From assembly GCA_965368975.1 (NCBI GenBank), contig CBDUPA010000001.1, positions 640,001 to 704,000 on the forward strand: a DNA stretch of 64,000 nucleotides, read 5' to 3'. Origin of the DNA: an uncultured bacterium. Lineage in GTDB: Bacteria > Acidobacteriota > Thermoanaerobaculia > Multivoradales > JAHZIX01. The position numbers were made by a program, and so were the translations under genes. Every line of letters begins with the position of its first letter. Within the stretch, counting starts at the first letter, position 1. Below are positions 37,470-58,671 of the stretch, piece by piece. The notes under the pieces are model-generated. The model did no database searches. It was given only the letters and a program-made list of their open reading frames with translations, and had not been told where the DNA came from.

Positions 37470-39575
37470 TCAACCCCCGCTGGCCGCGGCGTCGCGCGTG
37501 TGCGGTGCGTCCGGCAAGCTCAGGGTACGACTGGCTTCGGCTTGTGTGACGGTGGGTTGGAACACGCCCGTGCTCTCTTCCAGGCCGGGCAAGACGAGGT
37601 CCAGAAACTCCTGCCGGTAGCGCCGGTAGTTCAGCTTCGCCACCAGCGTGATCGGACCGGTCGCGTCGCGAGGGAGTGCCAGTTGGTAGACGTGGGAGTC
37701 CGAGTAGGCCGGGAAAACGACGCGTGTTCCTTTGCCTCCAGCCTTGTTCCACAGCTCGTGCCGCTTGAGAACGTTGCCGGCTTCGTCGACCGGCAAGGAC
37801 TCGAGCACCAGGGTGTCGGGGGCGTCGATGTCGTGCTCGCGCCCGCCCGTGCCCAGAATACGGCGGCTCTCCGGGTCGATTGCCCCCCACTCCGCCAGCA
37901 CCTGTCCGTTGCCGTCGAGGGCGCGCAGGTGCACCCACGAGCGGATGAAGTCGAGCGGGCCGGTGATGAAGTTGTGTCCCGCCTTGCGGTTGGTGACCAG
38001 CACCCGCACCTCGACGCTCTGGCCCGCTGCTGCCTGCTCGGGCGCCACGATCTGCAGTCCGACGACGGGTCCTGCCGGCCACAGGTGGGCGATCTCCGGC
38101 AGTACGTTTTCGCCGCGCACCCATTGTTCGGTCAGTTGAACTTGCTCCTGCCACTGTGGCAGACGCAACAGCGCCGGCATGAAGTTGTTGGTGGCGATGA
38201 AGCCGTGATGGCGATGAGCGCCATCGTCGGCGCCACGCCGCCGGTCCTCGGCTTCACCGTGACTGGGGTCGCGCGAGTCGTAGACCAGCCGCATGTGGCA
38301 GTCGCGACAGGCCAAGTCGGTTTCCGGGTCGTCGCTGTGCCAGTGGCTGTTCTTCCACTCGTCGTACTGGTTCTGACCGCTGACCAGGCCGAAGCGGTTG
38401 AGCGCTTCCGGGATGAACTGCTTGTGGCAAGCACCACAGTACTCCGGGGTTCGCAAGACACCCCGGTCGTAATCCTCCAAGTGCTGGCGAGGATACGCAC
38501 GGATCAGAAAGTCAGCCACGATCTTGTCCCAGCCGCGACCTAGCTCTCCCAGGTACTTGACTGGTGGCGTCAGCACATAGTCCGCGTTGCCCCGCTGGTC
38601 GACCTGCGAAATGGCGTGGCACGCCACGCACGAGATGCCTTCGTTGACGCCGGGTGCCGACAGGCTCTGGTTGCTCATGTCCTTGGCACCGGCGAAGAGT
38701 GAGATGGGATCGTGGCAGCCCGCGCAGTAGCGCGTCTCCGTGGCTTCTCGCTGCTCGGCGAAGAGCTTCTGGACCGCCTGGAACGGTGGATTCATCGCGG
38801 CGAAGCGGTGAGCGCTGGGCTCCCACTCGGCGAGAATCTCCTCATGGCAGCCGGAACTGCCGCAGGAAGCGGAGCCGGCCAGCAGCGCCGGCTCGACCAG
38901 TTGCAGGCTCTCGGTGCGGGCGTAGGTGGGGGCGAAGGGATTGCCCCGGTACTCGTCGAATTGCTGGGCGTACGTTGGCAGGCTGTAGTCTTCCGGCACC
39001 GCATGCTGAAAGTTGTGCCGTGGCCACCACAGGACCGTGGCCCCGAGGATCGCCAGCACCACCACCAACTGGACGCTGCTTCGTCGCGGCAGCGCCAGCA
39101 GCGCAGCGCGCAACGGCATGTCCCGTCGTGCTGCCGGCCAGCGGCGCAGGAAAGCGAGCAGTACGTGGCCGATCGTCAAGGCCGTCACCGCGAGGCCGGA
39201 GACCAGGTGGACGAGATCCCAGAATGCGGACAGGCGGGGGCCAAAAGCTGCATTCGCGGCGTTGACCAGGCCGCTGACCAAGGCTACGAGTACGCCCGCC
39301 AGCAGCACATAGCCGAGAACCATCTCGGCCGTCGCCTTCTGCCGCCACCAGTCACCCACATGACGCCACAGGTAGCGAGGCACGAGCAGGACGATCAGCA
39401 ACCCGACCGCGGTGTGGATCAGCACCAGGAGCTGTGAGAACACCGAGAAAGGGCCGAGAAACAGCCACAGGCCGGAGACACCGAGCAGTACCAGGGCCGC
39501 GCTGATGGCGGCGGCGAGCCACCAGCTCCAACCTCGCAGCGCCAGATCTCGTGCTGTCCGTTGCTCGTTGCCCAT
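37470..39575 (-). CDS. Membrane-bound multiheme c-type cytochrome
   Basis: About 5 N-terminal TM helices with intramembrane His residues; CxxCH motifs CAGCH, CVACH, CGACH, CRDCH plus CGSSGCH; AGHNFITG. Confidence 0.88.
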   Translation of the reverse strand: MGNEQRTARDLALRGWSWWLAAAISAALVLLGVSGLWLFLGPFSVFSQLLVLIHTAVGLLIVLLVPRYLWRHVGDWWRQKATAEMVLGYVLLAGVLVALVSGLVNAANAAFGPRLSAFWDLVHLVSGLAVTALTIGHVLLAFLRRWPAARRDMPLRAALLALPRRSSVQLVVVLAILGATVLWWPRHNFQHAVPEDYSLPTYAQQFDEYRGNPFAPTYARTESLQLVEPALLAGSASCGSSGCHEEILAEWEPSAHRFAAMNPPFQAVQKLFAEQREATETRYCAGCHDPISLFAGAKDMSNQSLSAPGVNEGISCVACHAISQVDQRGNADYVLTPPVKYLGELGRGWDKIVADFLIRAYPRQHLEDYDRGVLRTPEYCGACHKQFIPEALNRFGLVSGQNQYDEWKNSHWHSDDPETDLACRDCHMRLVYDSRDPSHGEAEDRRRGADDGAHRHHGFIATNNFMPALLRLPQWQEQVQLTEQWVRGENVLPEIAHLWPAGPVVGLQIVAPEQAAAGQSVEVRVLVTNRKAGHNFITGPLDFIRSWVHLRALDGNGQVLAEWGAIDPESRRILGTGGREHDIDAPDTLVLESLPVDEAGNVLKRHELWNKAGGKGTRVVFPAYSDSHVYQLALPRDATGPITLVAKLNYRRYRQEFLDLVLPGLEESTGVFQPTVTQAEASRTLSLPDAPHTRDAAASGG

Positions 39576-43065: not shown

Positions 43066-45525
43066 TCAGTCTGCTCGCAGCGCCACCAGCGGATCGACGC
43101 GCGTCGCCCGCCGGGCCGGAATCAAGCAGGCGAAGACAGCGGCGACCAGGATGGCAAGGGCGGCGGTAGCGAAGGCACTGAGGGACGTCGGCGCTGTGTC
43201 GAAAAGCATGGCCTGGATCAGGCGGCTGAGGCCGAGGGCGGCGAGCAGGCCGAGGACGATGCCGTAGCCGGCCAGGCGCAGGCCCTGGTGCAGGATCAGG
43301 CGGAGGGTGGCACCGGCATCGGCGCCGAGGGCTTGGCGGATGCCGATCTCGTGCGTGCGCTGGGCGACGGTGTAGGACATGACGCCGTAGATGCCGACGA
43401 CCGCGAGTGCTAGCGCTAGTGCGGCGAACAGGCCGAGCAGCAAGGTGCTGAAGCGGCGGGCGGCGAGGTTGCCGGCCATCAGGTCGGCCATGGTGCGCAG
43501 GTCGGAAATTGGCTGCTCGGGATTGAGGGCCAGAATCTCGCGCCGTACCAGGGGACCGTAGCTGGCGGGATTACCGCTGGTGCGCACCACCCAGGCGGTG
43601 GGGAAGAGGTCGGCGAGGAAGCCGGTGGTGCCGTCGGAGGCTTGAGTGTCGGCGGTGAAGACGGTGGGAGTCGGGGGACGGTCGAGCGCCAGTTCGCTGA
43701 CGTCGCCGACCACGCCGACGATCAGGTCGGGCGGCGTGTCCGAGCCCGGTGGACCGGTGAGGAGACGACGGCCGATGGGGTTCTCGTCGGGGAAGTACTG
43801 CTCGGCCAGCGCCTCATTGACGACCACCACCGTTGGTGCGTCGAGAGAATCGTGGCTGTCGAAGGTGCGCCCGCGCAGCAGGGGGATTCCCATGGTGTGG
43901 AAGTAGTCGGCCGAGATCTGACGCCACTGGCCGCGACCTTGACGCGTTGCAGCATCTGCGGGCTCGCGGCCTTCGACGTCGAAAATGTACATCAGGCCGT
44001 GTTCGAGCGGCAGCATGGAAACAGTGGCGGCAGCTTCGATGCCAGGGTTCTGCAGCAGGCGCTCGACGGCGCGCTCGGTGAACCGGGTCACCTGAGACGT
44101 CGTCAGGCTGGCGGTTTCACCCTGCCTCTCGGGGGTGGGCGACATCTTGAAGGTCAGGATCTGCTCGTAGTCATAGCCCGGGTCGAGGGCGGTGACCTTG
44201 AGGAAGCTCTGCACCAGGAGTAGGGCCCCGACCAGGAGCACCAGGGCCAGTGCGACCTCGGCGACGACCAGGGCGCCCCGTCCTCGGCTACGCTGCCCGC
44301 CGGTGCCCTGGGCGCTCTTGAGCGCCGCTTGCAGATCGGCTTTGGAGCCGTGCCAGGCGGGGATCAGGCCGAACAGGATGCCGGTCAGTAGGGTGACGGC
44401 GAAGGTGAAGCCGATCACCAAGACATCGATCTCAATGCCGTCGAGACGCGGCAGGCCGCTCGGCGTCCAGCGCACCAGGACGCCCATGCCAGCGCGCGCT
44501 AGGAGCAGACCGAGGGCGCCGCCGGTCAGTGCCAAGACCAGGCTTTCGACCAGCAGCTGGCGTAGCAGCTGCATTCGGCTGGCACCTAGCGATGCGCGCA
44601 CGGCGATCTCGCGGCGGCGGCCACGGGCCCGCGCCAGCAGAAGGTTGGCGACGTTGGCGCAGGCGATCAGCAAGACGAGGCCGACGGCGCCGAGGAGCAT
44701 CAACAGTGCCGGCCGCACGTTACCGACGAGTTGATCGAGGTAAGGGCGTACGAAGATGCTGACGCCGTCGCGCAGCAGCTGTGGGTGCTCGGCGCGCAGC
44801 GATTCGGCGATGGCGGCCATCTCCGAGCGTGCTGCGTCGACGGAACGGTCCGGATGCAGGCGGGCGAGCGTGTAGTAAACGGCGGCGCCGCCTTGTGGAT
44901 TGAACTCGAGGTGCAGCGGTGTCCAGACATCGGCGTGGTTGATGAAGTCGAAGCCGTTCGCCATCACGCCGACCACGGTGTGTTCCTCGCCGCTCAGGCG
45001 GATCGGTCGGCCGACGATGGCGGGGTCGGCGGCGAAGCGCCGGCGCCACAGGCCATCGCTGATCATCGCCACCTTGGCGGCCCCGGGTTCGCCGTCCGCC
45101 TCGGTGAAGTCGCGTCCGACTTGTGGCGGCACGCCCAGGACGCGGAAGAAGGACGGCGAGACGCCCAGGCTGGCTACGCGCTCTGGGCGGTCACCAGCTG
45201 CCAGTTCTCCGGGCACCAGGTTGAGCCCGCCGCCGCGGCCTTCATACAGGGCCATGTCGCTGAAGCAGCCATTGTGCTCACGCCAGTAGAGGTACTGGCT
45301 GATCGTCACCGCATTGGACTGGCCGGCGGGCAACTGGCGGCCGATCTGCAGCAACTCTTCCGGTTGTGCGTAGGGCAGGGGGTCGAGGAGGACGCGATCA
45401 AGCACGCTGAACAGCGCGGTATTGGCGCCGATGCCGAGCGCCAGCACGGTCACGGCGACGGCGGTGAAGCCACGGTTCTTGGTCATCGATCGCAGGGCGT
45501 GGCGCAGATCCCGGGTGAAGCTCAT
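43066..45525 (-). CDS. ADOP-type duplicated ABC permease (MacB/FtsX-like)
   Basis: DLRHALRS..LALGIGANTALFS, LLIACANVANLLLAR..EIAVRASLGA, GIYGVMSY..RTHEIGIR.ALGA, PARRATRVDPLVALR. Confidence 0.93.
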   Translation of the reverse strand: MSFTRDLRHALRSMTKNRGFTAVAVTVLALGIGANTALFSVLDRVLLDPLPYAQPEELLQIGRQLPAGQSNAVTISQYLYWREHNGCFSDMALYEGRGGGLNLVPGELAAGDRPERVASLGVSPSFFRVLGVPPQVGRDFTEADGEPGAAKVAMISDGLWRRRFAADPAIVGRPIRLSGEEHTVVGVMANGFDFINHADVWTPLHLEFNPQGGAAVYYTLARLHPDRSVDAARSEMAAIAESLRAEHPQLLRDGVSIFVRPYLDQLVGNVRPALLMLLGAVGLVLLIACANVANLLLARARGRRREIAVRASLGASRMQLLRQLLVESLVLALTGGALGLLLARAGMGVLVRWTPSGLPRLDGIEIDVLVIGFTFAVTLLTGILFGLIPAWHGSKADLQAALKSAQGTGGQRSRGRGALVVAEVALALVLLVGALLLVQSFLKVTALDPGYDYEQILTFKMSPTPERQGETASLTTSQVTRFTERAVERLLQNPGIEAAATVSMLPLEHGLMYIFDVEGREPADAATRQGRGQWRQISADYFHTMGIPLLRGRTFDSHDSLDAPTVVVVNEALAEQYFPDENPIGRRLLTGPPGSDTPPDLIVGVVGDVSELALDRPPTPTVFTADTQASDGTTGFLADLFPTAWVVRTSGNPASYGPLVRREILALNPEQPISDLRTMADLMAGNLAARRFSTLLLGLFAALALALAVVGIYGVMSYTVAQRTHEIGIRQALGADAGATLRLILHQGLRLAGYGIVLGLLAALGLSRLIQAMLFDTAPTSLSAFATAALAILVAAVFACLIPARRATRVDPLVALRAD

Positions 45526-45691
45526 CAGCGTCTCCTTTCGGCCAGTAACCAGTGCCGGTAGCCAGGTTCTATCGTTTCCATACGGCGCGCGCGGCGGAGG
45601 GTTCTCTCTCGCGCCCGTCCTGGGGTGATTGCCGGGGACACGGTATGATCACCGCCTGTGGCAACTCAGGACGATTTCGCGAGGAGGCGAT

Positions 45692-47479
<1,788 letters not shown>

Positions 47480-47567
47480 CGGGAGCCGCGGCGAGGGTTA
47501 CAATCGCTGCGAGACTTCGAATCTGGTACGATCTGCAGGTTCCGACGTTCCCAGCGAGGTATCGACC

Positions 47568-48209
47568 GTGACCCCAAGCCCGGAATTGCATCTGCGGCCG
47601 CTCTTCCCGACCCTGCTCGGGCAGGCGGATTTTGCGGCGGCCGCGGACCTCAATCCGCAATTGGCAGCGTATCTCCTGCAATGCGAGCAGGCCGAAGTGG
47701 GCGTTGCGCCTCGCACCACCGTGCGTCACGGTTGGCAGAGTGAGCTGGGTTTTCTCGACCGAGACCTGGAAGAGCTGGCGCCGCTGCGCGCCTTCTTCAA
47801 TCGCTCGATCGAAGCCTGGTTGGCCGAGCACGGCCGCTTCACACCCAGCAGTCCGGCGCCCGCGGGGTGGACGTACAGCTACCAGGGTTGGGCGGTGGTT
47901 CTGCGCCAGGGTGGCTTCCAGCACCAGCATGTCCACACGCGCACCGACCTGGTCGGTGTCTACTGCGTTGCGACTCCTTGGCGGCAGGGAGAGGCCGCTT
48001 CCGGCCACCTGACCCTGATCGATCCACGCGGTGGTCGGCTGGCGAATCGGCTGGCCTGGGAGGCGGACCGAATCGAGATCGAGCCGGTACCGGGGCGTTT
48101 GCTCCTGTTCCCGAGCTTCTTGCCGCACCGCGTGGAAGAGGTTCGTCAGCCGGGAGCGCGGATCACCATCAACTTCGACGTCACCATTCAGCCGAACACA
48201 AGGAGATGA
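47568..48209 (+). CDS. Putative 2OG-Fe(II) oxygenase (TIGR02466-like)
   Basis: LFPT, GWQS, WAVV, HxH (HVH), LVGVY, DPR, LLLFPSFLPHRV, RITINFD. Confidence 0.87.
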   Translation: MTPSPELHLRPLFPTLLGQADFAAAADLNPQLAAYLLQCEQAEVGVAPRTTVRHGWQSELGFLDRDLEELAPLRAFFNRSIEAWLAEHGRFTPSSPAPAGWTYSYQGWAVVLRQGGFQHQHVHTRTDLVGVYCVATPWRQGEAASGHLTLIDPRGGRLANRLAWEADRIEIEPVPGRLLLFPSFLPHRVEEVRQPGARITINFDVTIQPNTRR

Positions 48210-48212
48210 ACC

Positions 48213-48734
48213 ATGCCAGTGTTCCGTGATGCCAAGGGCAACCACTACGAGATCAGTGACCAAGACCTGGAGCGCTTCAAGATCGAAGGCGCTCCGGAGC
48301 AGGCCGCGGGGCACCAAGTCGCGGCCTACAACTACGCTCCCGCCGCTGGTGCCGCCTACAACTACGCTGCCGGCGCCAACGCTGCTGGCACCAACGCTGC
48401 TGGCACCCCCCAGGGAGCTGCGTACAACTATGCCGGCGCCGCTCCGGGTGCTGCGTACAACTATGCTGCCAATCCAGCGTACTTCTGGGACCACCGCGCC
48501 CCGCAGCAGCAGGGAGCTGCCTACAACTACGCTGCCAATCCAGCGTATTTCTGGGATCACCGTGCGCCGCAACAGCAGGGAGCTGCGTACAACTACGCCG
48601 GCGCCGCTCCGGGAGCTGCCTACAACTATGCTCCCGCCGCTGGTGCCGCGTACAACTATGCAGCCCCCGACGTAGCGGCCTACAACTACGAAGGTGCCGC
48701 TGCGAAGCCGGATGACGCCGACAGCGAGGGCTGA
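48213..48734 (+). CDS. Putative multi-core RiPP precursor peptide (9x AAYNY, 2x YFW)
   Basis: AAGGAG RBS; charged ~35-aa leader MPVFRDAKGNHYEISDQDLERFKIEG; repeats vary at synonymous positions (tac aac tac/tat); flanked by oxygenase and P450. Confidence 0.85.
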   Translation: MPVFRDAKGNHYEISDQDLERFKIEGAPEQAAGHQVAAYNYAPAAGAAYNYAAGANAAGTNAAGTPQGAAYNYAGAAPGAAYNYAANPAYFWDHRAPQQQGAAYNYAANPAYFWDHRAPQQQGAAYNYAGAAPGAAYNYAPAAGAAYNYAAPDVAAYNYEGAAAKPDDADSEG

Positions 48735-49986
48735 GATCCGCGGGGGACGTGGGGCCCCGGGTGCGCTGAGCTTCTTCACCGAACTGCGCAGCCAGGGGGC
48801 CATCGCCAGCTTTGTTTGGCAGGGGCGGCCCGCCCGCCTGCTCAACGAGCCCTCGATCATCGAGCACGTGCTGGGAGACGGGCGGGGCAACTACCTCAAC
48901 CCGCCCCATGAGTATGCCGACCTGCAGCCGATCCTGACGCCGGCCGGCCGGCTGCTGCTGGGGCTGCACGGCCGTTCGCCGGCGCTCGCTGCTGCCGGCG
49001 AGCACTCGGCGGCGCGGGCGGAGTTCGAACGGTTGCTGCTACAGGCGGGCGACGACCTGTGCGAGCGCTTGCTACCCACTGTGCGGCCCGGCGCTGCGTC
49101 AGAGGGGCTGGTGCCGGATGCCCTCGAGCCACTGAAGGTCTCGATGCTGCAGTTCTTCACTCGCCTGCTGTTCGACGTCGAGGTCGACGACGGTGCCGCG
49201 ATAGCCTGCCAGCGGGCGGCCGCTTGGCTGGAGATCGAAAGCGTACGCCAGCGGGCCGGAGCTGCTCCTCGGCCAGGGGTGGAGCTGGCGGAGCGTCAGC
49301 AGCTGGAGTTCGCGTCGCTGGTGCTGGCCCAGCGCTTGCGGCAAGTTGGGCGACCCGTGGCCGCGGCCACGCAGGAGTTCGGGAGTTCCACCAGACGAGC
49401 GGTGATCCGCACGCTTCTCAATGGCTACAACGCAATGGCGACGACCCTGGCTTGGACCTGCGTCTTGCTGGCCGCGCATCCCGAGACCCAGGCTCGCTTG
49501 GTCTCGCAGGCGCGAGGGACCTTGCCGCGCCGGCGACCGGCGCTCCGCGATGTGGCGAGCTTGACGGAAGTCCGCTACGCGATCCAAGAAGCGGAACGGC
49601 TCTACCCGTCTGCTTGGCTCTTGGGGCGTACGGCGCTGCGCGACGAGAGCTTCGGCCGCTGGCATGTGCCGGCTGGGGCCCTGGTCTACATCTGCCCCTT
49701 CGCTCTGCACCGCGACCCGCGCTTCTGGCAGCAGCCAGACGCCTTCCTGCCGCTACGCTTCGCTGCTCCTGGAACTGCGCGTCCGCGGGGGACGTTCCTA
49801 CCGTTTGGTAGCGGACCTCGTCGATGTCCTGCCAGGTCGCTCAGTCAAGCGATGCTGGTGCTGCTACTCGCCGCTTTGTTGGCTCGCTACCAGCTTCGAG
49901 AGGTACCGGGGACGCAGGTGGTGCCGTGGCCGCTGATCTCTCTCCGGCCGCACCCCTCCGTGCCGCTGCGCCTGCTGCCACGGTAG
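48712..49986 (+). CDS. Cytochrome P450
   Basis: ExxR (EAERLYP), LHRDP.FW.PDAFLPLRF, heme motif FLPFGSGPRRCPA; I-helix LLNGYNAMATT. Start ATG 48712 overlaps the precursor by 23 nt (alternative GTG 48694). Confidence 0.92.
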   Translation: MTPTARAEIRGGRGAPGALSFFTELRSQGAIASFVWQGRPARLLNEPSIIEHVLGDGRGNYLNPPHEYADLQPILTPAGRLLLGLHGRSPALAAAGEHSAARAEFERLLLQAGDDLCERLLPTVRPGAASEGLVPDALEPLKVSMLQFFTRLLFDVEVDDGAAIACQRAAAWLEIESVRQRAGAAPRPGVELAERQQLEFASLVLAQRLRQVGRPVAAATQEFGSSTRRAVIRTLLNGYNAMATTLAWTCVLLAAHPETQARLVSQARGTLPRRRPALRDVASLTEVRYAIQEAERLYPSAWLLGRTALRDESFGRWHVPAGALVYICPFALHRDPRFWQQPDAFLPLRFAAPGTARPRGTFLPFGSGPRRCPARSLSQAMLVLLLAALLARYQLREVPGTQVVPWPLISLRPHPSVPLRLLPR

Positions 49987-49987
49987 T

Positions 49988-50083
49988 GCGAGCGCTTCGA
50001 CGTGCACGTGTTCCACGACGTCGTGCTGTGGAACGGCTCGATTCCGCTGTCGGTATTGGAGGTGGAGATCGATCGCCCTATCG
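49988..50083 (+). repeat. Direct repeat copy 2 (degenerate DUF885 3'-end remnant)
   Basis: Translates [29 protein letters not shown] versus [29 protein letters not shown]; separated from the P450 stop by 1 nt. Confidence 0.9.
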
Positions 50084-50193
50084 AGACCTCGGAGAAAGAG
50101 GCGACCACCGGCCCTGCCTGTGAGAAGGAGAGGGAGAGACGGAAAAGCCGGGGTCGCCGCAGAGGAGATGTCAGTGGAAGAAAAGCCCGGTCG

Positions 50194-51342
50194 TCAGAAC
50201 GACCAAGCGAGGCTGACGATGCTGAGCTCCGTCTCGACGGGGTCGTCGAGGATGATGCTGAGCGGGATGCTCTCAACCTGGCTGTATCCCTCGAACCACT
50301 GGTGCTCGAGCTTCGCTGTCAAGTTGGGTAGCACGTCGTAGCGTAGGCCGATCGTCTTGACCTCTTCCAGGGATTCCTCGAAGACGGTCAGAAACGGGAT
50401 CTCGAAGCGAAGATCGGCGTTCTCGTACCTCGCGGCAGCGTGCAACCGGTCGGTGAGGCGTACGTCGACTTCGGCGTACCAAGGAGTGAATCGACCACCA
50501 GCCCACGATCGCTGGGAGTACTCGATCCGAACCGTCCAGGGATCGAAGGCTGCGTCTACAGATGCGTAGAGCGTCTCCTCAGTGATGTCTTCGCCTCGCC
50601 GTAGAATCGTGTCCTGGACCTCCAGATGGTTGGCGCCAAGGCCGATTCGTAGACCCTCGACCGGAGTGTTGATCCAGAGCCAAGCTCCGATGGCGTTCTT
50701 GATGTCAGCTGTGGTGTAGTCGAGCGTAGCGTTGGCGAACTCAATACGTTCCCATTCGCCGTAGTAGAGGTGTCCGTCGAAGCTCCAGTCCCCGGTCGCT
50801 GCGCTCTCGTAGGTCAGGACGATCCCGTCGACCGAATCACTGGTCCAGGTTCCGTCACCATAGAAGGAGCCGGAAGGGCGGTAGAAGGGGAGCAGGGTGC
50901 CGACGTCCTTGATCTCGTTGTAGATACCGATGGGCAGTGGGACTCGGCCGACGCGCACTGAGAACTCGTCGGACAGAACCCGCCGGTAGAAGAGCCAGTC
51001 GATTTCGATGTCGTCGCGAAGCTCGTTCGAAGGACTCGTACCGACGGAATCGTTGGCCAGTTGCAGAACCAGCTCATTTCGATCAGCGAGAGCGAGCCGG
51101 AACTGCAGTGCGACGGTATGGAGGTCAGCCGTTCCGTTCTCGGAGACACCGCTGTAGTCGAAGTTCTCCGAGACGCCGTAGCCCCAGTTGATGAAGCCGA
51201 AGAAGTCGAAGTCGACCTGGTATTTCTCCGTGGCTGGCGGCGCCTCGGCCTCTGAGGTCATCGAAGTCTGAGCTACGACGGGGATCGATGGGGAGATTAG
51301 GCATAGAAAGCCCAAAATGAGCGATAATTGTATGTATCTCAT
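50194..51342 (-). CDS. Outer-membrane beta-barrel porin-like protein (paralog 1)
   Basis: Signal peptide, amphipathic strands, RVGRVPLPIGIYNEIKDVG, C-terminal LAWSF. Confidence 0.82.
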   Translation of the reverse strand: MRYIQLSLILGFLCLISPSIPVVAQTSMTSEAEAPPATEKYQVDFDFFGFINWGYGVSENFDYSGVSENGTADLHTVALQFRLALADRNELVLQLANDSVGTSPSNELRDDIEIDWLFYRRVLSDEFSVRVGRVPLPIGIYNEIKDVGTLLPFYRPSGSFYGDGTWTSDSVDGIVLTYESAATGDWSFDGHLYYGEWERIEFANATLDYTTADIKNAIGAWLWINTPVEGLRIGLGANHLEVQDTILRRGEDITEETLYASVDAAFDPWTVRIEYSQRSWAGGRFTPWYAEVDVRLTDRLHAAARYENADLRFEIPFLTVFEESLEEVKTIGLRYDVLPNLTAKLEHQWFEGYSQVESIPLSIILDDPVETELSIVSLAWSF

Positions 51343-51376
51343 GTCTGCTCCTGAGTGAATGTAGAAAGCCCGTTCG

Positions 51377-52534
51377 TCAGAACGACCAAGCGAGGCTGAC
51401 GATGCTGAGCTCCGTCTCAACGGGATCGTCGAAGAAGATGTTCAGCGGCTGATCTTCGATCTGACCGAACCCCTCGAACCATTGGTATTCGGCCTTGACC
51501 ACCAACTCTGGCAGGATCGCGTAGCGCAGGCCGACGCTGTAGAGGTCTTCGATCGTGCCGTCGAAGGTGGCGAAGAAGGGGACTTCGAAGTAGAGGTCGG
51601 CGGTCTCGAAGCGGCCCGCCAGGTTCAGGCGGTCGGTGAGCTTGACGTCGATCTCTGCGTACCAGGGAGTCCAGTCGCCGCCGGTGAAGGATCGCCGGGA
51701 ATACTCGACGCGCACGCTCACGGGGTCGAAGTTGGCGTCGATCGAGACGTAGCGCGTCTCCTCCGAGTCGGTCACGCCGGGCGCCAGGAACACGCCGCCC
51801 GTGGCGTGGAAGTGGTTGTACCCGAGGCCCACGCGCAGTCCGTCGACGGGCGTGTTGATCCAAGTCCAGATGCCGCCAGCGTCCTCGATGTCGGCCACGT
51901 CGAAGGAAAGGTCGCCGCCCGACGTCTCGATGCGCTCCCACTCTCCGTAGTAGAGATGCGTGTCGAAGCTCCAGTCGCGGGTGCGGTCGGACTCGTAAGT
52001 GAAGACGATGCCGTCGACAGAGTCGCTGGTCCAAGTGCCGTCACCGTAGTAGACGCCCGAGGCACGGTAGAACGGCAGCAGGGTGCCGACGTCCTTGACC
52101 TCGTTGTAGATGCCGATCGGCAGGGGAACACGACCGACCCGGAAGTACGCATGATCGCTCAGCGTTCGACGGTAGTAGAGCCAGTCGAGTTCCAGGTCAT
52201 CGCGCAGCTCGTTCGACGGGCTCGTGCCGACGCGTTCATTGGCGAGTTGGAGTACGAATTCGTCCTTGTTGGTCGGGTTCAGCCGAAACTGCAGGGCGAC
52301 GGTGTGAAGATCGGCGGTGCCGTCTTCGGGGACGCCTCGATAGGCATGACCATCGGCGATGCCGTAGCCCCAGTTGATGAAGCCGAAGAAGCTGAAGGCG
52401 ACCTTGGAGCCTGCCTGAACCGGGTCGGCAGAGTCGTCCAGACTGGCCGGGTTTTGGGCGCTGCTCGGGACCACGGCCAGCACGGTCGCGAGGGACGTGA
52501 GAATCACGATGAGAGCGGACTTCTGACAGATCAT
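51377..52534 (-). CDS. Outer-membrane beta-barrel porin-like protein (paralog 2)
   Basis: GGAGG RBS, signal peptide, same motifs as paralog 1, identical C-terminus DDPVETELSIVSLAWSF. Confidence 0.82.
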   Translation of the reverse strand: MICQKSALIVILTSLATVLAVVPSSAQNPASLDDSADPVQAGSKVAFSFFGFINWGYGIADGHAYRGVPEDGTADLHTVALQFRLNPTNKDEFVLQLANERVGTSPSNELRDDLELDWLYYRRTLSDHAYFRVGRVPLPIGIYNEVKDVGTLLPFYRASGVYYGDGTWTSDSVDGIVFTYESDRTRDWSFDTHLYYGEWERIETSGGDLSFDVADIEDAGGIWTWINTPVDGLRVGLGYNHFHATGGVFLAPGVTDSEETRYVSIDANFDPVSVRVEYSRRSFTGGDWTPWYAEIDVKLTDRLNLAGRFETADLYFEVPFFATFDGTIEDLYSVGLRYAILPELVVKAEYQWFEGFGQIEDQPLNIFFDDPVETELSIVSLAWSF

Positions 52535-52600
52535 GACGCCTCCTGTTTGGGCGATAGAAAGGATCAAACAATGAAAGTAGGCACACGACTCCCGCATGGG

Positions 52601-52668
52601 TGACATTGTCAACCATCGAATTGGTTTCGAGGCGCACCAACTTCCAGCCACTAGAGCACTTGTGCTCT
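52601..52668. promoter_or_regulatory. Two palindromes in the AT-rich region upstream of the porin pair
   Basis: TGACA-T-TGTCA (52601-52611) and AGAGCAC-TT-GTGCTCT (52653-52668). Confidence 0.4.
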
Positions 52669-52927: not shown

Positions 52928-54976
52928 TTACCACCAGATCTCGGAATCCGGGTTCATCCACTGTTCGCGGGAGAATTGTTCCGGGCCCGTGCGGCGATGG
53001 AAGGTACCGTCTTCTCGGGCCTGAGCGGCGATCCGGTCGAGCTCCTGGTGAATCTGGTCGAGTTCCTGGTCCGTCAAGGGGCCGGTGCCGGGTGGCGGTG
53101 CAGTGGCACCGCTGGGAGGTGGCGGCCCGGTGTCTGGATCGCTGGCTGGTGGCGGGGTACTTGGTGGCGGAGTACCTGGTGGCGGGGTACCTGGCGGTGG
53201 GGCGCTGGGAGGAGGAGAGCTGGAATCGCTGCTCGGGTCAGGTGGCGGCGGTGGGCAGTGGGCGGGAGGGGTCTCGATCAGGGCTTCGAGGACGGTGATC
53301 TGCTGCTGCAGGAAGTGGTGGTTGCGGTCGGCGTCGGCGGCGACGGTCGGGGCTTCCCGGTCGAATTCGCCGGCCGAGGTGAAGCGACGGGTCGCTTGTT
53401 GCCACAGATCCAGGGTCCGGCTCAGGTCGCAGTCCTGGGGATCACGCTCAGCGACGCCCCACAGGAAGAGTGCGACGCCGTCGTTGAAGTGGGCTTCGGC
53501 CAGGCGCGGGGCCAGTTGCAGGGTCTCTTGGTAGAGATCGTGGGCCTCGGAATAGCGACCGTCGAGCGTCGCCGAGCGGGCCAGGTTGTAGCTCGGGATC
53601 TCGGGCTGAATCTCGTAGGCCAGGCTACGATGGTAGTGCACCGCGGCTTCGCTATGCTCGCTGGCGTCGTCGCGCTCGATACCCCGTTCGTTCTCGATGT
53701 AGGCCTGCCAGGCGTCGTCGCTGCAGCCCAAGCCGAGCACGAGCAGGAGCAAGCCGGCGAAGGGAGGGGTGGTAGATGCGCGCCGCGTTCCTAGACGCTC
53801 GATCTCGAAGCGAGACCGTAGGCGCCGACCGAGGTGGCCGATCACCAGGGTGTCGAGCAGGACGATGGCCAGGACCAGCAGGAGTGGAGTTCTGCCCAGG
53901 TCCTCGGCGGCGGCTTCGCTGTCACCTTCCGAGTTCTCGCTGTCGCCTGTGGAGCTGAACTGGGTCTGGGAGATCCGGCGCTGAGCGGGACGCTCGCGGA
54001 TCGTTGTGGCCAGCGCGTTGGCCAAGACGTCCGGTGTGCCGTCTCCCAGGTCGCTACCGTCGGTGCGGTAGAAATCGCCGTCGGTGCGGTTGGCGATGCG
54101 ACGGAAGTGCTCGTCTTCGCGCCGCGACGTGTACTCGACCAGCACACGGCGCTCGTCGGGTTCCTTGCCGTCGACGACGTCGCGGTAGTCGTAGAGTTTG
54201 TGCCAGCGGCCGTCCGTGCCGCCGATCGCCACCGCATGCACCGGGACACCTCGGCGCGCCAGGGCGTCGAGTGAGGCCGCGTAGTCGAGCTCGAAGGGCA
54301 ATTCACCATCTCCCAGAAACACCACCTGTAAGTCGCCGCTGCGCTCGTCTTCGTGGCCGGCGAAAGGCAGGATGGCGTCGAGGGCGCTGGCCAGGTTGGA
54401 GCCGGAGTTCTGGTACATCGTGTACCACTCGACGGTGCGCAGCGCTTCGCTCAAGGCCACGCGGTCGTCGGTGATCGGTAGCAGGATGGTGGCGGTACCG
54501 CTGTAGCTGAGCATGCCGAAGTGGTGGTTCGGCAGCTCGGCGGTGAGACGCTGGCCGAGGTAGCGGGCGAGTTCGAAGCGGTCCCACTCCTCGATCTCTT
54601 CGCTACCGTCCACGGCCTCGCTGGTTTCCGCAAGCTCGGGGCCGAGCCCCGGCGGCAGGTCTAGATCCTCGGAGGTCATGCTGTGCGAGGCGTCGAAGAC
54701 GAGCAGCACGCGTCCATTCGCCGCCTCGGCTTCGATCTCACCCAACCGCTTGGGGCCGGCAGCGGCGTAGATGAGCAGCACGCCGGCGAGGAGCAACAGC
54801 CACAGGTGTGCCCGCAGCGAGCCGCGGCCGTGGACGGTCAGCGCACGGCGGAAGCGGGGGGACACGTGGAGGTGCAGCCAGTCGACGGACCGTCGCTGCT
54901 GGCGGCCGAACCACCAGGCGCCGAGCAGCCAGGGGACAAGCAGCCACAGCAATTCCGGACGTTCGAGGACGGTCAT
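52928..54976 (-). CDS. VWA + TPR protein (BatB/BatC-like fusion) with Pro-rich tail
   Basis: N-terminal TM helices, MIDAS DASHSM, PITDD, GDGE; TPR (YNLAR, AHFNDG); PPPGT repeats; ends in WW. Confidence 0.85.
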   Translation of the reverse strand: MTVLERPELLWLLVPWLLGAWWFGRQQRRSVDWLHLHVSPRFRRALTVHGRGSLRAHLWLLLLAGVLLIYAAAGPKRLGEIEAEAANGRVLLVFDASHSMTSEDLDLPPGLGPELAETSEAVDGSEEIEEWDRFELARYLGQRLTAELPNHHFGMLSYSGTATILLPITDDRVALSEALRTVEWYTMYQNSGSNLASALDAILPFAGHEDERSGDLQVVFLGDGELPFELDYAASLDALARRGVPVHAVAIGGTDGRWHKLYDYRDVVDGKEPDERRVLVEYTSRREDEHFRRIANRTDGDFYRTDGSDLGDGTPDVLANALATTIRERPAQRRISQTQFSSTGDSENSEGDSEAAAEDLGRTPLLLVLAIVLLDTLVIGHLGRRLRSRFEIERLGTRRASTTPPFAGLLLLVLGLGCSDDAWQAYIENERGIERDDASEHSEAAVHYHRSLAYEIQPEIPSYNLARSATLDGRYSEAHDLYQETLQLAPRLAEAHFNDGVALFLWGVAERDPQDCDLSRTLDLWQQATRRFTSAGEFDREAPTVAADADRNHHFLQQQITVLEALIETPPAHCPPPPPDPSSDSSSPPPSAPPPGTPPPGTPPPSTPPPASDPDTGPPPPSGATAPPPGTGPLTDQELDQIHQELDRIAAQAREDGTFHRRTGPEQFSREQWMNPDSEIWW

Positions 54977-54989
54977 CTGAGGCGCCTTG

Positions 54990-55040
54990 TCATCGTAGAG
55001 GTCGTCTCATCGTAGAGGTCGCCTCATCGTAGAGGCCGGC
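54990..55040. repeat. Three tandem 17-bp copies of the batA-like gene 3' end including its stop codon
   Basis: tcatcgtagaggtcgtc / tcatcgtagaggtcgcc / tcatcgtagaggccggc. Confidence 0.8.
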
Positions 55041-56082
55041 GTAGCACGATGCCGGTCAGCAGCAGGTAGAGGGTAAAGAGCGGCAACGCGGCGAGCGCCA
55101 GCCAGCGGCGGTACGACCGACGGATCTCGACCGTCGTGACCTCCAGCGGTGCGCTCTCCAGCCGCGACAGATGACCGAAGATGGTTTCCAGGGCACCGGC
55201 GTCGGTGGCGCGGAAGTAGTGGCCGTCGGCCAGCTCGGCGATGCGTTGCAGCTGGGCTTCGTCGAGCGAGGTGAGGTAGGGATCGTCCTCGCCGCCGAGC
55301 TTGTCGCCTTCGAACATGACCTCCATGGGCTCGTCGCCACCCAACCCGATGGTGTAGAGGCGGATCTGCAGATGGTGCACGAAGCGAGCGGCCAGCTCAG
55401 GCTCGATCCCTTCGTTGGACTCGCCGTCGGTGATCAGGATCAGTGCCTGGTCACGCTGTGGCCGGCGTGCGCGTTCGAGCAGCTGGGCGCCGGCCAGCAG
55501 TGCGTCGCCAATGGCGGTGCCGCCGCTCTTGCTCGGTGAGATGGTGTGCACGGTGACACCGCCGAGCAGCGCGCGCAGCGACGGACGGTCGGTGGTCAGC
55601 GGGCTCTGGACATAGGCGTCCTTACCGAAGATCAGCAGGCCGATGCGGTGGCCACTGGCACGGTCGAGGAAGTCACCGGCGATGCGGCGCAGGGCTTCCA
55701 TGCGGTTGGGCGGGAAGTCTTCGGCCAGCATGCTGAGGGAGACATCGAGCACCAGCAGGACGTCGATGCCTTCGTTTTCCATTAGCTCCAGCTCGGTCGA
55801 ACGGTGCGGCCCGGCGATACCCAGGATCAGGGCTGCGAGGAGCAGAACCTCGACGGCCAAGCTGAGGGAAGGCAGACCTCGGTGTCGCATCAACCACAGC
55901 GGGCCTGGAGGTCGAGAAGAGGGCCCTGCAGCCTGCAGTTGCAGCGCGCCGTATGGTAGCTGGTCGCGCCGCCGCAGCCGCCAGCGCTGCCAGGCGTAGA
56001 GTGGCAGTAAGAGCAGAACCCAGAGCCAGCGCGGATCGTCGAGTTGGAGCTCGAACGGCAGACCGAGGATGCCTGGGGCCAT
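55024..56082 (-). CDS. batA: BatA-like VWA domain membrane protein
   Basis: EGIDVLLVLDVSLSMLAEDF.PNR, SPLTTD, GTAIGDAL, LITDGESN, LYTIG, YFRATD. Confidence 0.88.
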   Translation of the reverse strand: MAPGILGLPFELQLDDPRWLWVLLLLPLYAWQRWRLRRRDQLPYGALQLQAAGPSSRPPGPLWLMRHRGLPSLSLAVEVLLLAALILGIAGPHRSTELELMENEGIDVLLVLDVSLSMLAEDFPPNRMEALRRIAGDFLDRASGHRIGLLIFGKDAYVQSPLTTDRPSLRALLGGVTVHTISPSKSGGTAIGDALLAGAQLLERARRPQRDQALILITDGESNEGIEPELAARFVHHLQIRLYTIGLGGDEPMEVMFEGDKLGGEDDPYLTSLDEAQLQRIAELADGHYFRATDAGALETIFGHLSRLESAPLEVTTVEIRRSYRRWLALAALPLFTLYLLLTGIVLRRPLR

Positions 56083-56678
56083 CACGAGGTCTCCTCGGCG
56101 TCCTGAGTGGAGGACCGGCGTCCGCGCTGGCCTTCGACCAGCCAGCGGGCGTCGCGGCAGATCCCGCGGAAGGCGCGTGGACTGGGCTCGTCGCGGCCGA
56201 ATTGCAAGCCGGCCAGCTGCAAGAGGAGCTTGGCGATCTTGCCATCTCCCAGGCGGCTGCCGATCTCTCGTGCCGTCAAGTGGTCGAGACGTTCGCGGCG
56301 GTCCGCCTCGAAGTGGTCGCGTAACATGGCGGCCAGCTGGTGGCAGCCCTGGCGCGGGTCGGCCGTGAACTCTTCGGCCAGCGCTTCGATACGGCTGCCG
56401 ATGCCACCGGCGCGTGCTCGCGGAGGCGGCGGTGGTTTGGCGGCGCGCGGCTTGGCTTTGACTCGCTTGCCCAGCCGGTAGAGTCCCCAGAGCACCAGCA
56501 GCACGGCGAGCAGCAGCAAGACGAGGCAACCGCATCCGACCATCCAGGGCGCGACGGCCTTGGGCAGATGCAGTGGGTCGGCCAGGCCCGCGGGAAGTTC
56601 CGGTGGCGCGTCTGGTGCCAGCGGGGGGTTCGATGTGGTCAGGGCGTTCGGTGTTGTCAGGATGTTTAGGGCCATCAT
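56082..56678 (-). CDS. Single-TM membrane protein of the MoxR/Bat operon (DUF4381-like)
   Basis: One TM helix followed by a Pro/Arg linker and LT..EI motif; overlapping start/stop junctions with neighbours. Confidence 0.7.
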   Translation of the reverse strand: MMALNILTTPNALTTSNPPLAPDAPPELPAGLADPLHLPKAVAPWMVGCGCLVLLLLAVLLVLWGLYRLGKRVKAKPRAAKPPPPPRARAGGIGSRIEALAEEFTADPRQGCHQLAAMLRDHFEADRRERLDHLTAREIGSRLGDGKIAKLLLQLAGLQFGRDEPSPRAFRGICRDARWLVEGQRGRRSSTQDAEETS

Positions 56679-57658
56679 CGTGGCCGCCGTACCCGTCGGC
56701 GCTGCTTGCGGTGCAGCAGGGTGCGCAGGGTCGTGGTGACCGGTACCTTGGTGGAGCAGGAGGCGAAGTCGAGGCCGAGCGTCATGCTGCGCTGGCGCAG
56801 GAAGTCTTGCATCTCGTGCAGGGCGCCGGCGTCGCCGGGACGCACCCCGCGTCGCGAGGCCGCACGTTCCGTTTCCGGGCCTTCGGGCGAGACACCGGTG
56901 AAGCGCACGGGCGCGGGCACCACTCCGTCCGCGCCGAGCTGCCCAGGAAGCTCAACGGGGTCGTAGACATGCAGCAGCGTGACGTCGTGGCGCGGCCGGA
57001 AGTAGCGCAGGTCGTCGGGGACGTCGAGGTCGATGAAGTCAGAAATCAGGAAGACGACGAAGCGGCCGCGACGGTGGCGCTCGATGGCGTGTACCGCGGT
57101 GCGCGGGTCCGAGACTTCGACCGGCCGCTGCCACGGTGCGGTGTGGTGCAGCAGTGCGCGCAACACCTGGAACAGCTGTCGCTGGCCCCCGCGCGGACGG
57201 CTCTCGGCAAGCACCTGATCGGCGAACAGGACGTACCCGACGCGGTCACCGCTGTCGACCGCCGCCAAGCTGAGGGTTGCCGCCAGCTCGACGGCGTGCT
57301 CGAGCTTGGTCTTGTCCTGGAAGCCCAGGTGCATCGACGGGCTGACGTCGAGGCCGATCCAGACATCCCGCCGCCGCTCTTCCTCGTGCACCTTCACGTA
57401 GGGCTCGCCGAGGCGTGCGGTGACGTTCCATTCGATGCTGCGCGCCGGCTCACCCGGCACGTACTTGCGGGTTTCGTAGTAGACCAATCCTTGGCCGCGC
57501 ACCGACGTTTCGTAGTCGCCACTGGTCAGGCCGGCAGCATTGTGGCGTGCCACCATCTCGAGCTGCTGAATGCGTCGCAGCAGCGTATCGAAGTCGGCGC
57601 TTTGCAGCGCCGCGGACGTGGACGCCGAGGGTGTCGTCGACGAGGGGGGAGCAGCCAC
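56675..57658 (-). CDS. DUF58 family protein
   Basis: G.Y.TSVRGQG..YETRKYVPGE..RSIEWNVTAR, EEER, DVSPSM, LISDF. Confidence 0.92.
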   Translation of the reverse strand: MAAPPSSTTPSASTSAALQSADFDTLLRRIQQLEMVARHNAAGLTSGDYETSVRGQGLVYYETRKYVPGEPARSIEWNVTARLGEPYVKVHEEERRRDVWIGLDVSPSMHLGFQDKTKLEHAVELAATLSLAAVDSGDRVGYVLFADQVLAESRPRGGQRQLFQVLRALLHHTAPWQRPVEVSDPRTAVHAIERHRRGRFVVFLISDFIDLDVPDDLRYFRPRHDVTLLHVYDPVELPGQLGADGVVPAPVRFTGVSPEGPETERAASRRGVRPGDAGALHEMQDFLRQRSMTLGLDFASCSTKVPVTTTLRTLLHRKQRRRVRRPR

Positions 57659-57681
57659 GTATCGGCCTCCTAAGTGTCGCC

Positions 57682-58671
57682 TCAGGGCACCGGAACGGTG
57701 CTCAAGACTTCGTCGATCACCTGGTCACTGGTCACGCCTTCGGCTTCCGCGTAGTAGGTGGTCAGGATACGGTGTCGCAGGACGTCGTGGGCCACCGCCT
57801 TGACGTCGTCGGGCAGAGTCGCGTCGCGACCCTCGATCAGCGCCGTCGCGCGTGCCGCCTGGGCCAGGGCGATCGAGGCGCGCGGCGAGGCGCCGAGCTC
57901 GACGAAGCGGCCCAAGGTCAAGCTGTTCTGTGGCGTACTCCCGTCCGGCTGTTGGTGCTGCGCCTTGCGCGTCGCTTGCACCAGGTCGGCAGCGTAGCGG
58001 ATCACCCGGTCTTCGATGAACACCTCACGTGTTTCGGCCTGCAGGTGTAGCACCTGCTCGTGGGTGATCTGTGTCCTTGGTTCGGGAAGCTGTTGTTCAT
58101 TGAGCACCAGCCGGACGATCTCTGGTTCTGCCTCGGGGGCTGGGTAGCCGACGACCAACTTGAGCAAGAAGCGGTCGAGCTGCGCTTCTGGCAGCGGGTA
58201 GGTGCCCTCTTGTTCGACCGGGTTCTGCGTCGCGAAGACCAGGAATGGCGGCGGCACCGGGTAGCTGGTCTGGCCGATCGTCACCTGCCGCTCCTGCATG
58301 GTCTCGAGCAACGCCGACTGCACCTTGGCCGGTGCGCGGTTGATCTCGTCGGCCAGTAGCACGTTGGTGAACACGGGGCCTTGGACGGTCTCGAAGGTCG
58401 CCGAGTGCTGGTTGTAGACGCGCGTGCCGATGATGTCCGCCGGTAGCAGGTCGGGGGTGAACTGGACGCGGCGGAACTGCAGGTGGCAGGCGCGCGCCAG
58501 CAGGTTGACGGCACGCGTCTTGGCCAGACCCGGCACGCCTTCGATCAGCACGTGACCGCCGGCCACCAGGGCCACCAGCAAGCCCCGGATGAGCCCTTCC
58601 TGGCCGACGATGCCGCGCCGGATCTCGGTTTCCAGCTGACGCAGGATCGGATGAGGAGAAGATGTTGTCAT
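57682..58671 (-). CDS. moxR: MoxR family AAA+ ATPase
   Basis: GHVLIEGVPGLAKT, RVQFTPDLLPADIIG, LADEINRAPAKVQSALLE, TQNP.EQEGTYPLPEAQLDRF, GASPRA. Confidence 0.96.
   Translation of the reverse strand: MTTSSPHPILRQLETEIRRGIVGQEGLIRGLLVALVAGGHVLIEGVPGLAKTRAVNLLARACHLQFRRVQFTPDLLPADIIGTRVYNQHSATFETVQGPVFTNVLLADEINRAPAKVQSALLETMQERQVTIGQTSYPVPPPFLVFATQNPVEQEGTYPLPEAQLDRFLLKLVVGYPAPEAEPEIVRLVLNEQQLPEPRTQITHEQVLHLQAETREVFIEDRVIRYAADLVQATRKAQHQQPDGSTPQNSLTLGRFVELGASPRASIALAQAARATALIEGRDATLPDDVKAVAHDVLRHRILTTYYAEAEGVTSDQVIDEVLSTVPVP

Follow-up and report, generated by a model that had tools for sequence, protein, structure and literature searches.

A candidate family of ribosomal peptides with multiple Tyr-x-Tyr motifs encoded beside a cytochrome P450 and a putative iron oxygenase

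The DNA stretch analysed here, the window, comprises 64,000 nucleotides (nt) of contig CBDUPA010000001.1 (GenBank assembly GCA_965368975.1, positions 640,001 to 704,000) from an uncultured acidobacterium of the class Thermoanaerobaculia. It carries a cassette of three co-oriented genes at positions 47568-49986 which code, in this order, for a putative Fe(II)/2-oxoglutarate oxygenase, a 173-amino-acid peptide composed of a leader and repeats, and a cytochrome P450 (Table 1). The cassette probably belongs to an undescribed family of peptides that are made by the ribosome and modified after translation (RiPPs), where the P450 would close rings between aromatic residues at positions i and i+2 of short motifs and the oxygenase would add a second oxidation. 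A probability of about 0.7 is assigned to this reading.

The three genes are tightly packed. The oxygenase stop codon is separated from the ATG of the peptide gene by 3 nt (48210-48212), and the P450 gene, read from its ATG at 48712, overlaps the peptide gene by 23 nt. Initiation at an in-frame GTG at 48694 would extend this overlap to 41 nt and the P450 from 424 to 430 amino acids, but the ATG is preferred because homologous P450s align from that codon. An earlier reading made from the letters of the window alone (the sequence-only reading) had described three co-oriented genes with this gap and overlap, and a 173-residue leader-plus-repeats peptide with nine Tyr-Asn-Tyr and two Tyr-Phe-Trp motifs; the coordinates, the spacing and the motif counts are all verified.

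Association of the three genes is conserved among unrelated bacteria. A profile of the oxygenase fetched 13 loci, 10 metagenomic and 3 genomic, and the repeat peptide adjoins the oxygenase in nine of them (L002, L003, L005, L007-L010, L012 and L013). The leader is seen beside the oxygenase in L002, L003, L005, L007, L008, L010 and L012, it is fused to the oxygenase in L009, and in L013 only the carboxyl-terminal SYNY repeats of the peptide are visible, at the contig end. The L011 contig stops inside the oxygenase gene, so its downstream genes lie outside, while that of L002 stops 133 nt past the peptide gene. A P450 gene is found at all eight peptide-bearing loci that extend past the peptide (9/9 when the window is counted), its product matching the window P450 with tblastn E-values between 6.6e-6 (61 residues on L005) and 4e-59. 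The order oxygenase-peptide-P450 and the common orientation are kept in seven of these eight loci, L013 being rearranged with the P450 and the peptide on the other strand. DNA searches with a profile of the peptide confirmed no locus (35 pattern matches in genome contigs and 484 in metagenome contigs).

The genes around the cassette are of varied nature: the window has DUF885 and outer-membrane genes, L005 has citrate synthase, L008 a sensor kinase, L009 genes for an O-methyltransferase and a WD40 protein, L010 genes for a ferritin-like protein and a GMC oxidoreductase, L012 SLOG/SLATT and a second P450, and L013 genes for a MatE exporter and for an M1 aminopeptidase. The flanks differ at every locus and the trio is therefore the conserved unit. 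The check suggested by the sequence-only reading, a search of the surroundings of enzyme homologues for a peptide with this leader and repeats, gave a positive outcome, with a P450 at 8/8 assessable peptide loci. The contrary case that it had put forward, that P450 homologues would lack a linked repeat peptide, does not apply to the loci fetched by the oxygenase, which delimit this statement. Its repeated Tyr-x-Tyr motif recurs in the relatives, but the strict form has to be broadened to Tyr/His-x-Tyr/Trp.

The 173-residue peptide has no match in Pfam or NCBIfam. It consists of a hydrophilic head of 35 residues followed by nine AAYNY(A/E) units and two AYFWD units, and each of the 22 Tyr and Trp residues of its core falls in an aromatic-x-aromatic motif. 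The reading frame is under selection, because the differences between its repeats are synonymous only: two tandem 66-nt copies (48446-48511 and 48512-48577) differ at eight bases, all eight of them silent, and the nine AAYNY units vary within A-A-Y-N-Y exclusively at synonymous sites. The candidate explanation of a chance open reading frame in GC-rich DNA is ruled out by this pattern of variation and by the conservation of the leader across loci whose GC content spans 43% to 73%. The AAGGAG Shine-Dalgarno sequence ahead of the ATG (Table 1) and the relatives that share the leader in other organisms likewise speak for a real gene.

A word-indexed protein search with the window peptide identified four relatives. 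The profile built from these and the window peptide was searched against 1.84 billion cluster representatives, yielding 32 matches with E<=1e-3, of which 13 reach E<=1e-10 and 3 reach E<=1e-30. The leader is present in 28 of the 32 as an amino-terminal segment of ~35 residues with the consensus MPLFRDxxGNFYDIPxExLxRYxVxGELPE, whose positions M1, F4, R5, D6, G9 and L19 are invariant across 34 aligned relatives. P0021, P0032 and P0034, which lack it, are fragments or have different amino termini, while the weak match P0031 was rejected as a false positive, an Ig/PKD-repeat protein. Leader-bearing precursors have 58 to 467 amino acids, many of them being short (58-110 residues), and their length and repeat architecture vary freely past the leader.

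The composition of the core region was assessed in a pooled set of 38 leader-bearing peptides (the window peptide, database proteins and locus translations), which holds near-duplicates: the L005 peptide is the same as P0005, and that of L003 closely resembles P0011. In this set 568 of the 596 post-leader Tyr and Trp residues lie in a [Tyr/Trp/His]-x-[Tyr/Trp] motif. YNY is the most abundant (171), followed by YNW (34), YFW (21), YTW (10), HNY (9), YLW, HHY and YIW (7 each) and rarer types. Asn occupies the middle position in 214 of 291 counted motifs, which in the remainder is taken by F, T, L, I, H, Q, R and others. There are 11 motifs in the window precursor and from 1 to ~23 in its relatives. 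Nine close pairs of precursors, aligned with gaps scored as mismatches, are identical at 262/315 positions of the leader, 157/180 motif aromatics and 734/1167 linker positions, which amounts to 87% for the motifs versus 63% for the linkers. A constant leader and constant modification motifs combined with drifting spacers would be the signature expected of a RiPP precursor. The number of repeats differs between close relatives as well, the L002 peptide having 200 residues and that of L012 274, and the last motif is YNYE in 12 of the 38 peptides.

A few members of the family depart from the common repeat. P0017, P0018, P0019 and P0028 feature divergent units (HHYPPAVG repeated seven times, YTW(N/P) seven times, YLYCYWY three times and YIW six times), which points to rings of His with Tyr and of Tyr with Trp, and perhaps to rings that overlap. 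Motifs with Asn are absent from the leader-bearing peptides P0013, P0017, P0018, P0023 and P0028.

The cassette oxygenase matches Pfam family PF13759 (2OG-FeII_Oxy_5) with 52.6 bits, above the gathering cut-off of 27, and positions 2-200 of the 201 of the NCBIfam model TIGR02466 with 56.7 bits, below the curated cut-off of 62.5. By these scores it is a divergent relative of TIGR02466, and the label TIGR02466-like that it had received earlier is a fair one, the match falling just short of the cut-off. Residues H121, H123, H187 and R198 are invariant in all 17 aligned oxygenases and coincide with the His/His/His/Arg of PDB entries 2rg4 and 3bvc; the second putative metal ligand is thus His, not Asp or Glu. 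These two solved PF13759/TIGR02466 members, whose fold and His-x-His...His...Arg positions match the cassette oxygenase, carry the label 'uncharacterized protein'. Its close relatives form 17 clusters with 46-73% identity. The homologue P0040, for which the Atlas model has a predicted template modelling score (pTM) of 0.87, places by features and structure only among PF13759 clusters, and of the Atlas clusters nearest to it one is 62% viral (Uroviricota). A tblastn search of plasmid sequences with the oxygenase gave no match.

In a maximum-likelihood tree the oxygenases of L004, L006 and L014 are set apart from all the peptide-linked ones by a 100/100 branch of length 1.16, and the link between oxygenase and peptide holds therefore for one clade. 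The other clade carries a GWRS...ITINxDV signature. In L014 (6995-9445) and L006 (36-2467) the oxygenase gene is followed by one coding for a protein of ~600 residues in which TPR repeats are combined with a second PF13759 domain, an arrangement that looks like a different two-gene unit.

In L009 the oxygenase and the peptide are coded by one open frame with a linker of ~20 residues in between. The same fused architecture is found in an independent representative, P0024. The two fused proteins are only 74% identical over 319 amino acids, so the fusion has been retained through substantial divergence. Among the present observations it argues most strongly that the oxygenase may act directly on the peptide, while internal initiation at the peptide Met is possible.

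The window P450 matches PF00067 with an E-value of 5.7e-38 and has the Cys-ligand loop (FGSGPRRCPA) and ExxR motif (EAER), together with the I-helix sequence NGYNAMATT. Six cassette P450s are 32-40% identical to it, with the Cys-ligand loop FGxGxRRCPA and ExxR intact. The best PDB match of the P450 profile is 7wzl ('putative cytochrome P450'; E 2e-61 over the full length), for which a full-text search retrieved no mention in the literature, followed by CYP170A1 and CYP3A-type enzymes. At the I-helix (window 49420-49445) all six cassette P450s have N-A in place of the usual acid-alcohol pair, which is E-T in 7wzl (NGYNA(T/M)ATT versus AGHETTAT). All six match the NCBIfam ApyO and albaflavenone monooxygenase models, both far under their cut-offs. 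ApyO is the sole RiPP-named NCBIfam model that they match, with a best E-value of 1.5e-29, and for the window P450 the score against this model (NF050147) is 85 bits where the equivalog cut-off is 525. The match is best taken as a sign of broad kinship, not of shared function or orthology, and serves as a useful analogy only. A word-based search for P450 homologues found only the window's own protein and one protein 38% identical to it. In the 7.1-Mb genome the cassette P450 is the sole match to the P450 profile at E<=1e-10, and this genome seems to have neither another close P450 nor a linked redox partner.

From these features a pathway can be proposed, in which every chemical step is inferred, as are the product's form and the enzyme responsible for leader recognition. 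The precursor would combine the conserved leader of ~35 residues with a variable string of Tyr(or His)-x-Tyr(or Trp) motifs. The P450 would couple oxidatively the aromatic residues i and i+2 of each motif, creating one small ring per motif with a loss of 2 Da. The TIGR02466-type oxygenase would act directly on the same peptide for a second oxidation, most likely hydroxylation of a motif residue. Both enzymes are expected to work at or next to the motif aromatics because these alone are conserved throughout the cores. An Asn-specific hydroxylase is not implied, since the middle residue is not always Asn, and such a role is possible for most members. Host peptidases could then trim the Ala/Gly/Pro-rich linkers to leave protease-resistant small rings, for example cyclo-linked Tyr-Asn-Tyr.

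The same enzymology could instead yield an uncut product, one long peptide bearing a string of small rings and comparable to the many-ringed cyclophane peptides. This reading, rather doubtful as it stands, is in line with the single leader per peptide, with the YNYE ending common to about a third of the pooled peptides and with the lack of a conserved protease; against it, the faster drift of the linkers is that expected of discarded spacers, the repeat number changes between close relatives, and the known natural products with this ring type are tripeptides in the accessible accounts. We lean slightly towards release of the ring units, one long many-ringed peptide being nearly as likely.

A swap of roles, with the oxygenase as the leader-guided defining enzyme that acts on the aromatic motif and the P450 as a secondary tailoring hydroxylase, is improbable. 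The P450 is equally conserved at the assessable loci, and aromatic coupling at i/i+2 is documented for P450s in the accessible literature, where no such report was found for PF13759. What speaks for the swap is that in two lineages it is the oxygenase that is fused with the peptide, that the two are translationally coupled in the window by the short gap and by a Shine-Dalgarno sequence inside the oxygenase 3' end, and that the peptide-linked oxygenases all stand on one side of the 100/100 branch.

Very improbable is a Tyr-rich structural or adhesive protein, as in a spore coat or matrix, hardened by intermolecular dityrosine or 3,4-dihydroxyphenylalanine (DOPA)-type chemistry: linkers rich in Ala, Gly and Pro, some members of 399-467 residues, the lack of a conserved linked protease or exporter and one carrier in Archangium, a spore-forming myxobacterial genus, would suit it, but the leader is conserved and hydrophilic, with no hydrophobic amino terminus and no signal peptide by eye, the i/i+2 spacing of nearly all aromatics suits intramolecular rings, many members have just 58-110 residues, and the distribution is as rare and patchy as that of accessory cassettes.

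Some observations weigh against the assignment to a P450-modified RiPP family with a second, oxygenase-catalysed step. Precursors of 399 (L008) and 467 amino acids (L007) are long, which is unusual for RiPPs. Pfam scans of the flanks detect no conserved protease, exporter, RiPP recognition element (RRE) protein or redox partner with the cassette. The ApyO score of the window P450 is lower than that against a model of terpene-oxidising enzymes of the CYP170 type (116 bits). On the side of the oxygenase, its dependence on 2-oxoglutarate is putative, no functionally described PF13759/TIGR02466 member was found in literature, PDB and Atlas searches, homologues from the separate clade of L004, L006 and L014 occur without peptide or P450, and the middle residue of the motifs varies, so that the oxygenase target cannot be read from the sequence.

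Comparison with known systems draws on the accessible parts of the published accounts and is to be read within them. P450s of bacteria are described that couple aromatic residues at i/i+2 in RiPPs (PMC11117315; PMC13703928; reviews), and the cassette fits the broad kind of P450-crosslinked RiPPs on every feature that sequence can test, namely gene linkage and i/i+2 aromatics. The nearest named RiPP P450 model is that of ApyO, from the aminopyruvatide pathway (Nguyen et al. 2024, PMC11117315; Padhi et al. 2026, PMC13703928). This enzyme links both Tyr residues of Tyr-Leu-Tyr through a C-C bond; it accepts Trp in place of Tyr and with substituted substrates produces Trp-Tyr C-N or Tyr-Tyr C-O links (PMC11117315; PMC13703928). 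As in the cassette, where coupling is predicted, a P450 is associated with a ribosomal peptide that has a Tyr-x-Tyr motif. Unlike the cassette precursors, ApyA has a single carboxyl-terminal YLY and belongs to an MNIO-defined class that also employs a B12-radical SAM enzyme and a methyltransferase. The cassette encodes none of the three, and no MNIO family came up when it and its flanks were scanned with Pfam.

The biarylitides (BytA/BytO) and cittilins (CitA/CitB) resemble the cassette as minimal clusters of a peptide and a P450 with no dedicated protease. Their crosslink joins the aromatics 1 and 3 of a tripeptide unit, comparable to the i/i+2 motifs found here. The biarylitide precursor is a leaderless peptide of ~5 residues (MxYxH type) with one core, whereas those of the cassette have 58-467 amino acids with a leader of ~35 residues, up to ~23 motifs and an additional conserved oxygenase. 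In the triceptides a radical SAM maturase adjoins a many-motif precursor; Pfam scans detect no radical SAM family in the cassette, nor in its flanks.

OF4949, an ether-bridged tripeptide from Penicillium rugulosum that inhibits aminopeptidase B, is the product for which Zdouc et al. proposed the name 'biarylicin YNY'. It has rings between residues 1 and 3, and its sequence, Tyr-Asn-Tyr, is that of the dominant motif of the cassette. The fungal pathway to OF4949 reportedly has a copper-dependent oxidase, whereas the sole oxidative enzymes of the cassette are a P450 and a putative iron oxygenase. The cassette thus falls outside the biarylitides by its precursor type, the aminopyruvatides by the lack of an MNIO and the low P450 score, and the fungal pathway by its different oxidase. 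Some OF4949 congeners have a hydroxylated Asn and an O-methyl group, which would fit the oxygenase and the O-methyltransferase of L009. K-13, renieramide and eurypamide are grouped with OF4949 as rings between residues 1 and 3, and their biosynthesis is stated to be unresolved (PMC13703928). The oxygenase-peptide fusion recalls the borosins, in which the modifying enzyme, as here, is either fused to the amino terminus of its own substrate or a separate protein, depending on the member. Borosin enzymes are backbone-modifying methyltransferases, whereas the fused enzyme of the cassette is a putative iron oxygenase. Within its own family the latter is distinguished by the long 100/100 branch that separates the peptide-linked oxygenases from the non-linked ones of L004, L006 and L014.

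Full-text literature searches retrieved no description of the leader, of a many-repeat precursor of a P450 RiPP or of a RiPP role for PF13759/TIGR02466, and word searches of PMC11659900, PMC10124130 and PMC13417212 returned no mention of repeats, tandem cores or 2-oxoglutarate enzymes. The sequence-only reading did not recognise the combination of polyprotein precursor, P450 and 2-oxoglutarate oxygenase as a described class, and no description of it was found in the literature searched. Subscription papers and supplements lie outside that search, and the group could figure, uncharacterised, in a genome-mining table.

Table 1. Sequence features of the cassette and its borders; positions are those of the window.
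Feature	Position	Strand	Evidence or remark
DUF885 gene	45629-47479	+	Pfam, E 8e-178
96-nt direct repeat, left copy; genuine 3' end of the DUF885 gene	47364-47459	+	86% identical to right copy
Sigma-70-like promoter (weak match) between DUF885 stop and oxygenase start	47476-47504	+	CTGACG-17-TACAAT, 9/12
Putative Fe(II)/2-oxoglutarate oxygenase, PF13759/TIGR02466 type, 213 amino acids	47568-48209	+	Pfam, NCBIfam, alignments
Shine-Dalgarno sequence AAGGAG, 7 nt ahead of the peptide ATG, within the end of the oxygenase gene	48200-48205	+	Sequence
Precursor leader, residues 1-35, MPVFRDAKGNHYEISDQDLERFKIEG...	48213-48317	+	Leader conservation in relatives
Precursor repeat (core) region and stop codon, 9 Tyr-Asn-Tyr and 2 Tyr-Phe-Trp	48318-48734	+	Motif counts
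Cytochrome P450, 424 amino acids	48712-49986 (alternative GTG 48694)	+	Pfam, alignment, PDB profile search
96-nt direct repeat, right copy; remnant of the DUF885 3' end, 2 nt past the P450 stop	49988-50083	+	Encodes ...RFDVHVFHDVVLWNGSIPLSVLEVEIDR...

The trio is bracketed by two 96-nt direct repeats (Table 1), one at the genuine end of the DUF885 gene and the other directly after the P450 gene, which points to its insertion into the 3' end of the DUF885 gene. Scars of this kind would be expected after a DNA circle had integrated through a single crossover, or after site-specific insertion at the gene end. Relatives carry DUF885 orthologues of 60% identity at most, and the GC content of the cassette region does not stand out. 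Neither Rfam, searched over positions 45000-52000, nor a tRNA scan of the window gave a hit, and no tRNA-type integration site is evident. The sigma-70-like promoter match ahead of the oxygenase gene is weak evidence, one site being present against 0.2 expected in shuffled sequences. DUF885 was considered as a conserved peptidase of the cluster and rejected, as it is found at no other cassette locus.

Carriers are few. The peptide is present in one of 401 genomes sampled from the phylum of the window, which is the genome of the window itself, and the oxygenase is in none of five genomes of the same family (82-99% complete). Likewise, one of 301 genomes from the order of an Archangium metagenome-assembled genome (MAG) has the peptide, and it is that MAG. 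The carriers with a named source include Thermoanaerobaculia MAG proteins, an Archangium MAG and an uncultured bacterium. To judge from the direct repeats, the sparse carriers and the wide GC range of the loci, the cassette is rare, patchy and horizontally spread; it would be a mobile unit that inserted in this genome at the end of the DUF885 gene.

Several neighbours of the cassette deserve description. The O-methyltransferase gene of L009 (2547-3539; PF00891, E 1.8e-45) lies directly 3' of the P450 gene and its product may provide a tailoring step. In L013 (2400-6588) the cassette adjoins genes for a Peptidase_M1 aminopeptidase with HEAT repeats and for a MatE exporter, at this one locus only; they could have a role in maturation, export or self-protection and are a lead only. 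Aminopeptidase B is itself a member of family M1. Upstream of the cassette, the Archangium MAG locus L012 carries a SLOG/SLATT gene and also a second, unrelated P450 gene (2584-3828, minus strand; PF00067, E 4.4e-35). Downstream of the cassette, the minus strand of the window codes for two tandem paralogues of ~410-420 residues (50194-51420 and 51377-52651), both ending in ...VETELSIVSLAWSF; only one has a Pfam match, a weak one to OmpA_membrane, and the pair has the appearance of outer-membrane barrels from an unnamed family. Further downstream on the same strand lies a BatA/VWA, DUF58 and MoxR (AAA_3) set (52928-58671). A multihaem cytochrome-like gene (37470-39575) and a MacB/FtsX-type permease gene (43066-45525) are found on the other side. 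Neither the BatA/DUF58/MoxR set nor the cytochrome-like and permease genes occur at other cassette loci.

The wider proposal is tentative. The cassette may define a new RiPP class in which the P450 rings Tyr/His-x-Tyr/Trp at up to ~23 motifs, the TIGR02466 oxygenase is a peptide-modifying enzyme sometimes fused to its own substrate, and the products, once trimmed, are bacterial counterparts of OF4949. If so, the P450 ring-forming peptides would be extended by a leader-dependent, many-motif branch, the members previously described in the accessible literature being single-core, and the PF13759/TIGR02466 oxygenases would gain their first functional setting. The cassette would be a compact three-gene route to Tyr-x-Tyr/Trp ring tripeptides, a scaffold whose known members, in those accounts, inhibit aminopeptidase B and angiotensin-converting enzyme (ACE), and the natural diversity of its middle residue (N, F, T, L, I, H, Q, R and others) and repeat number would offer a panel of substrates for biocatalysis. 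It would also provide candidate sources for K-13 and for the sponge compounds renieramide and eurypamide, and suggests where their biosynthesis might be sought.

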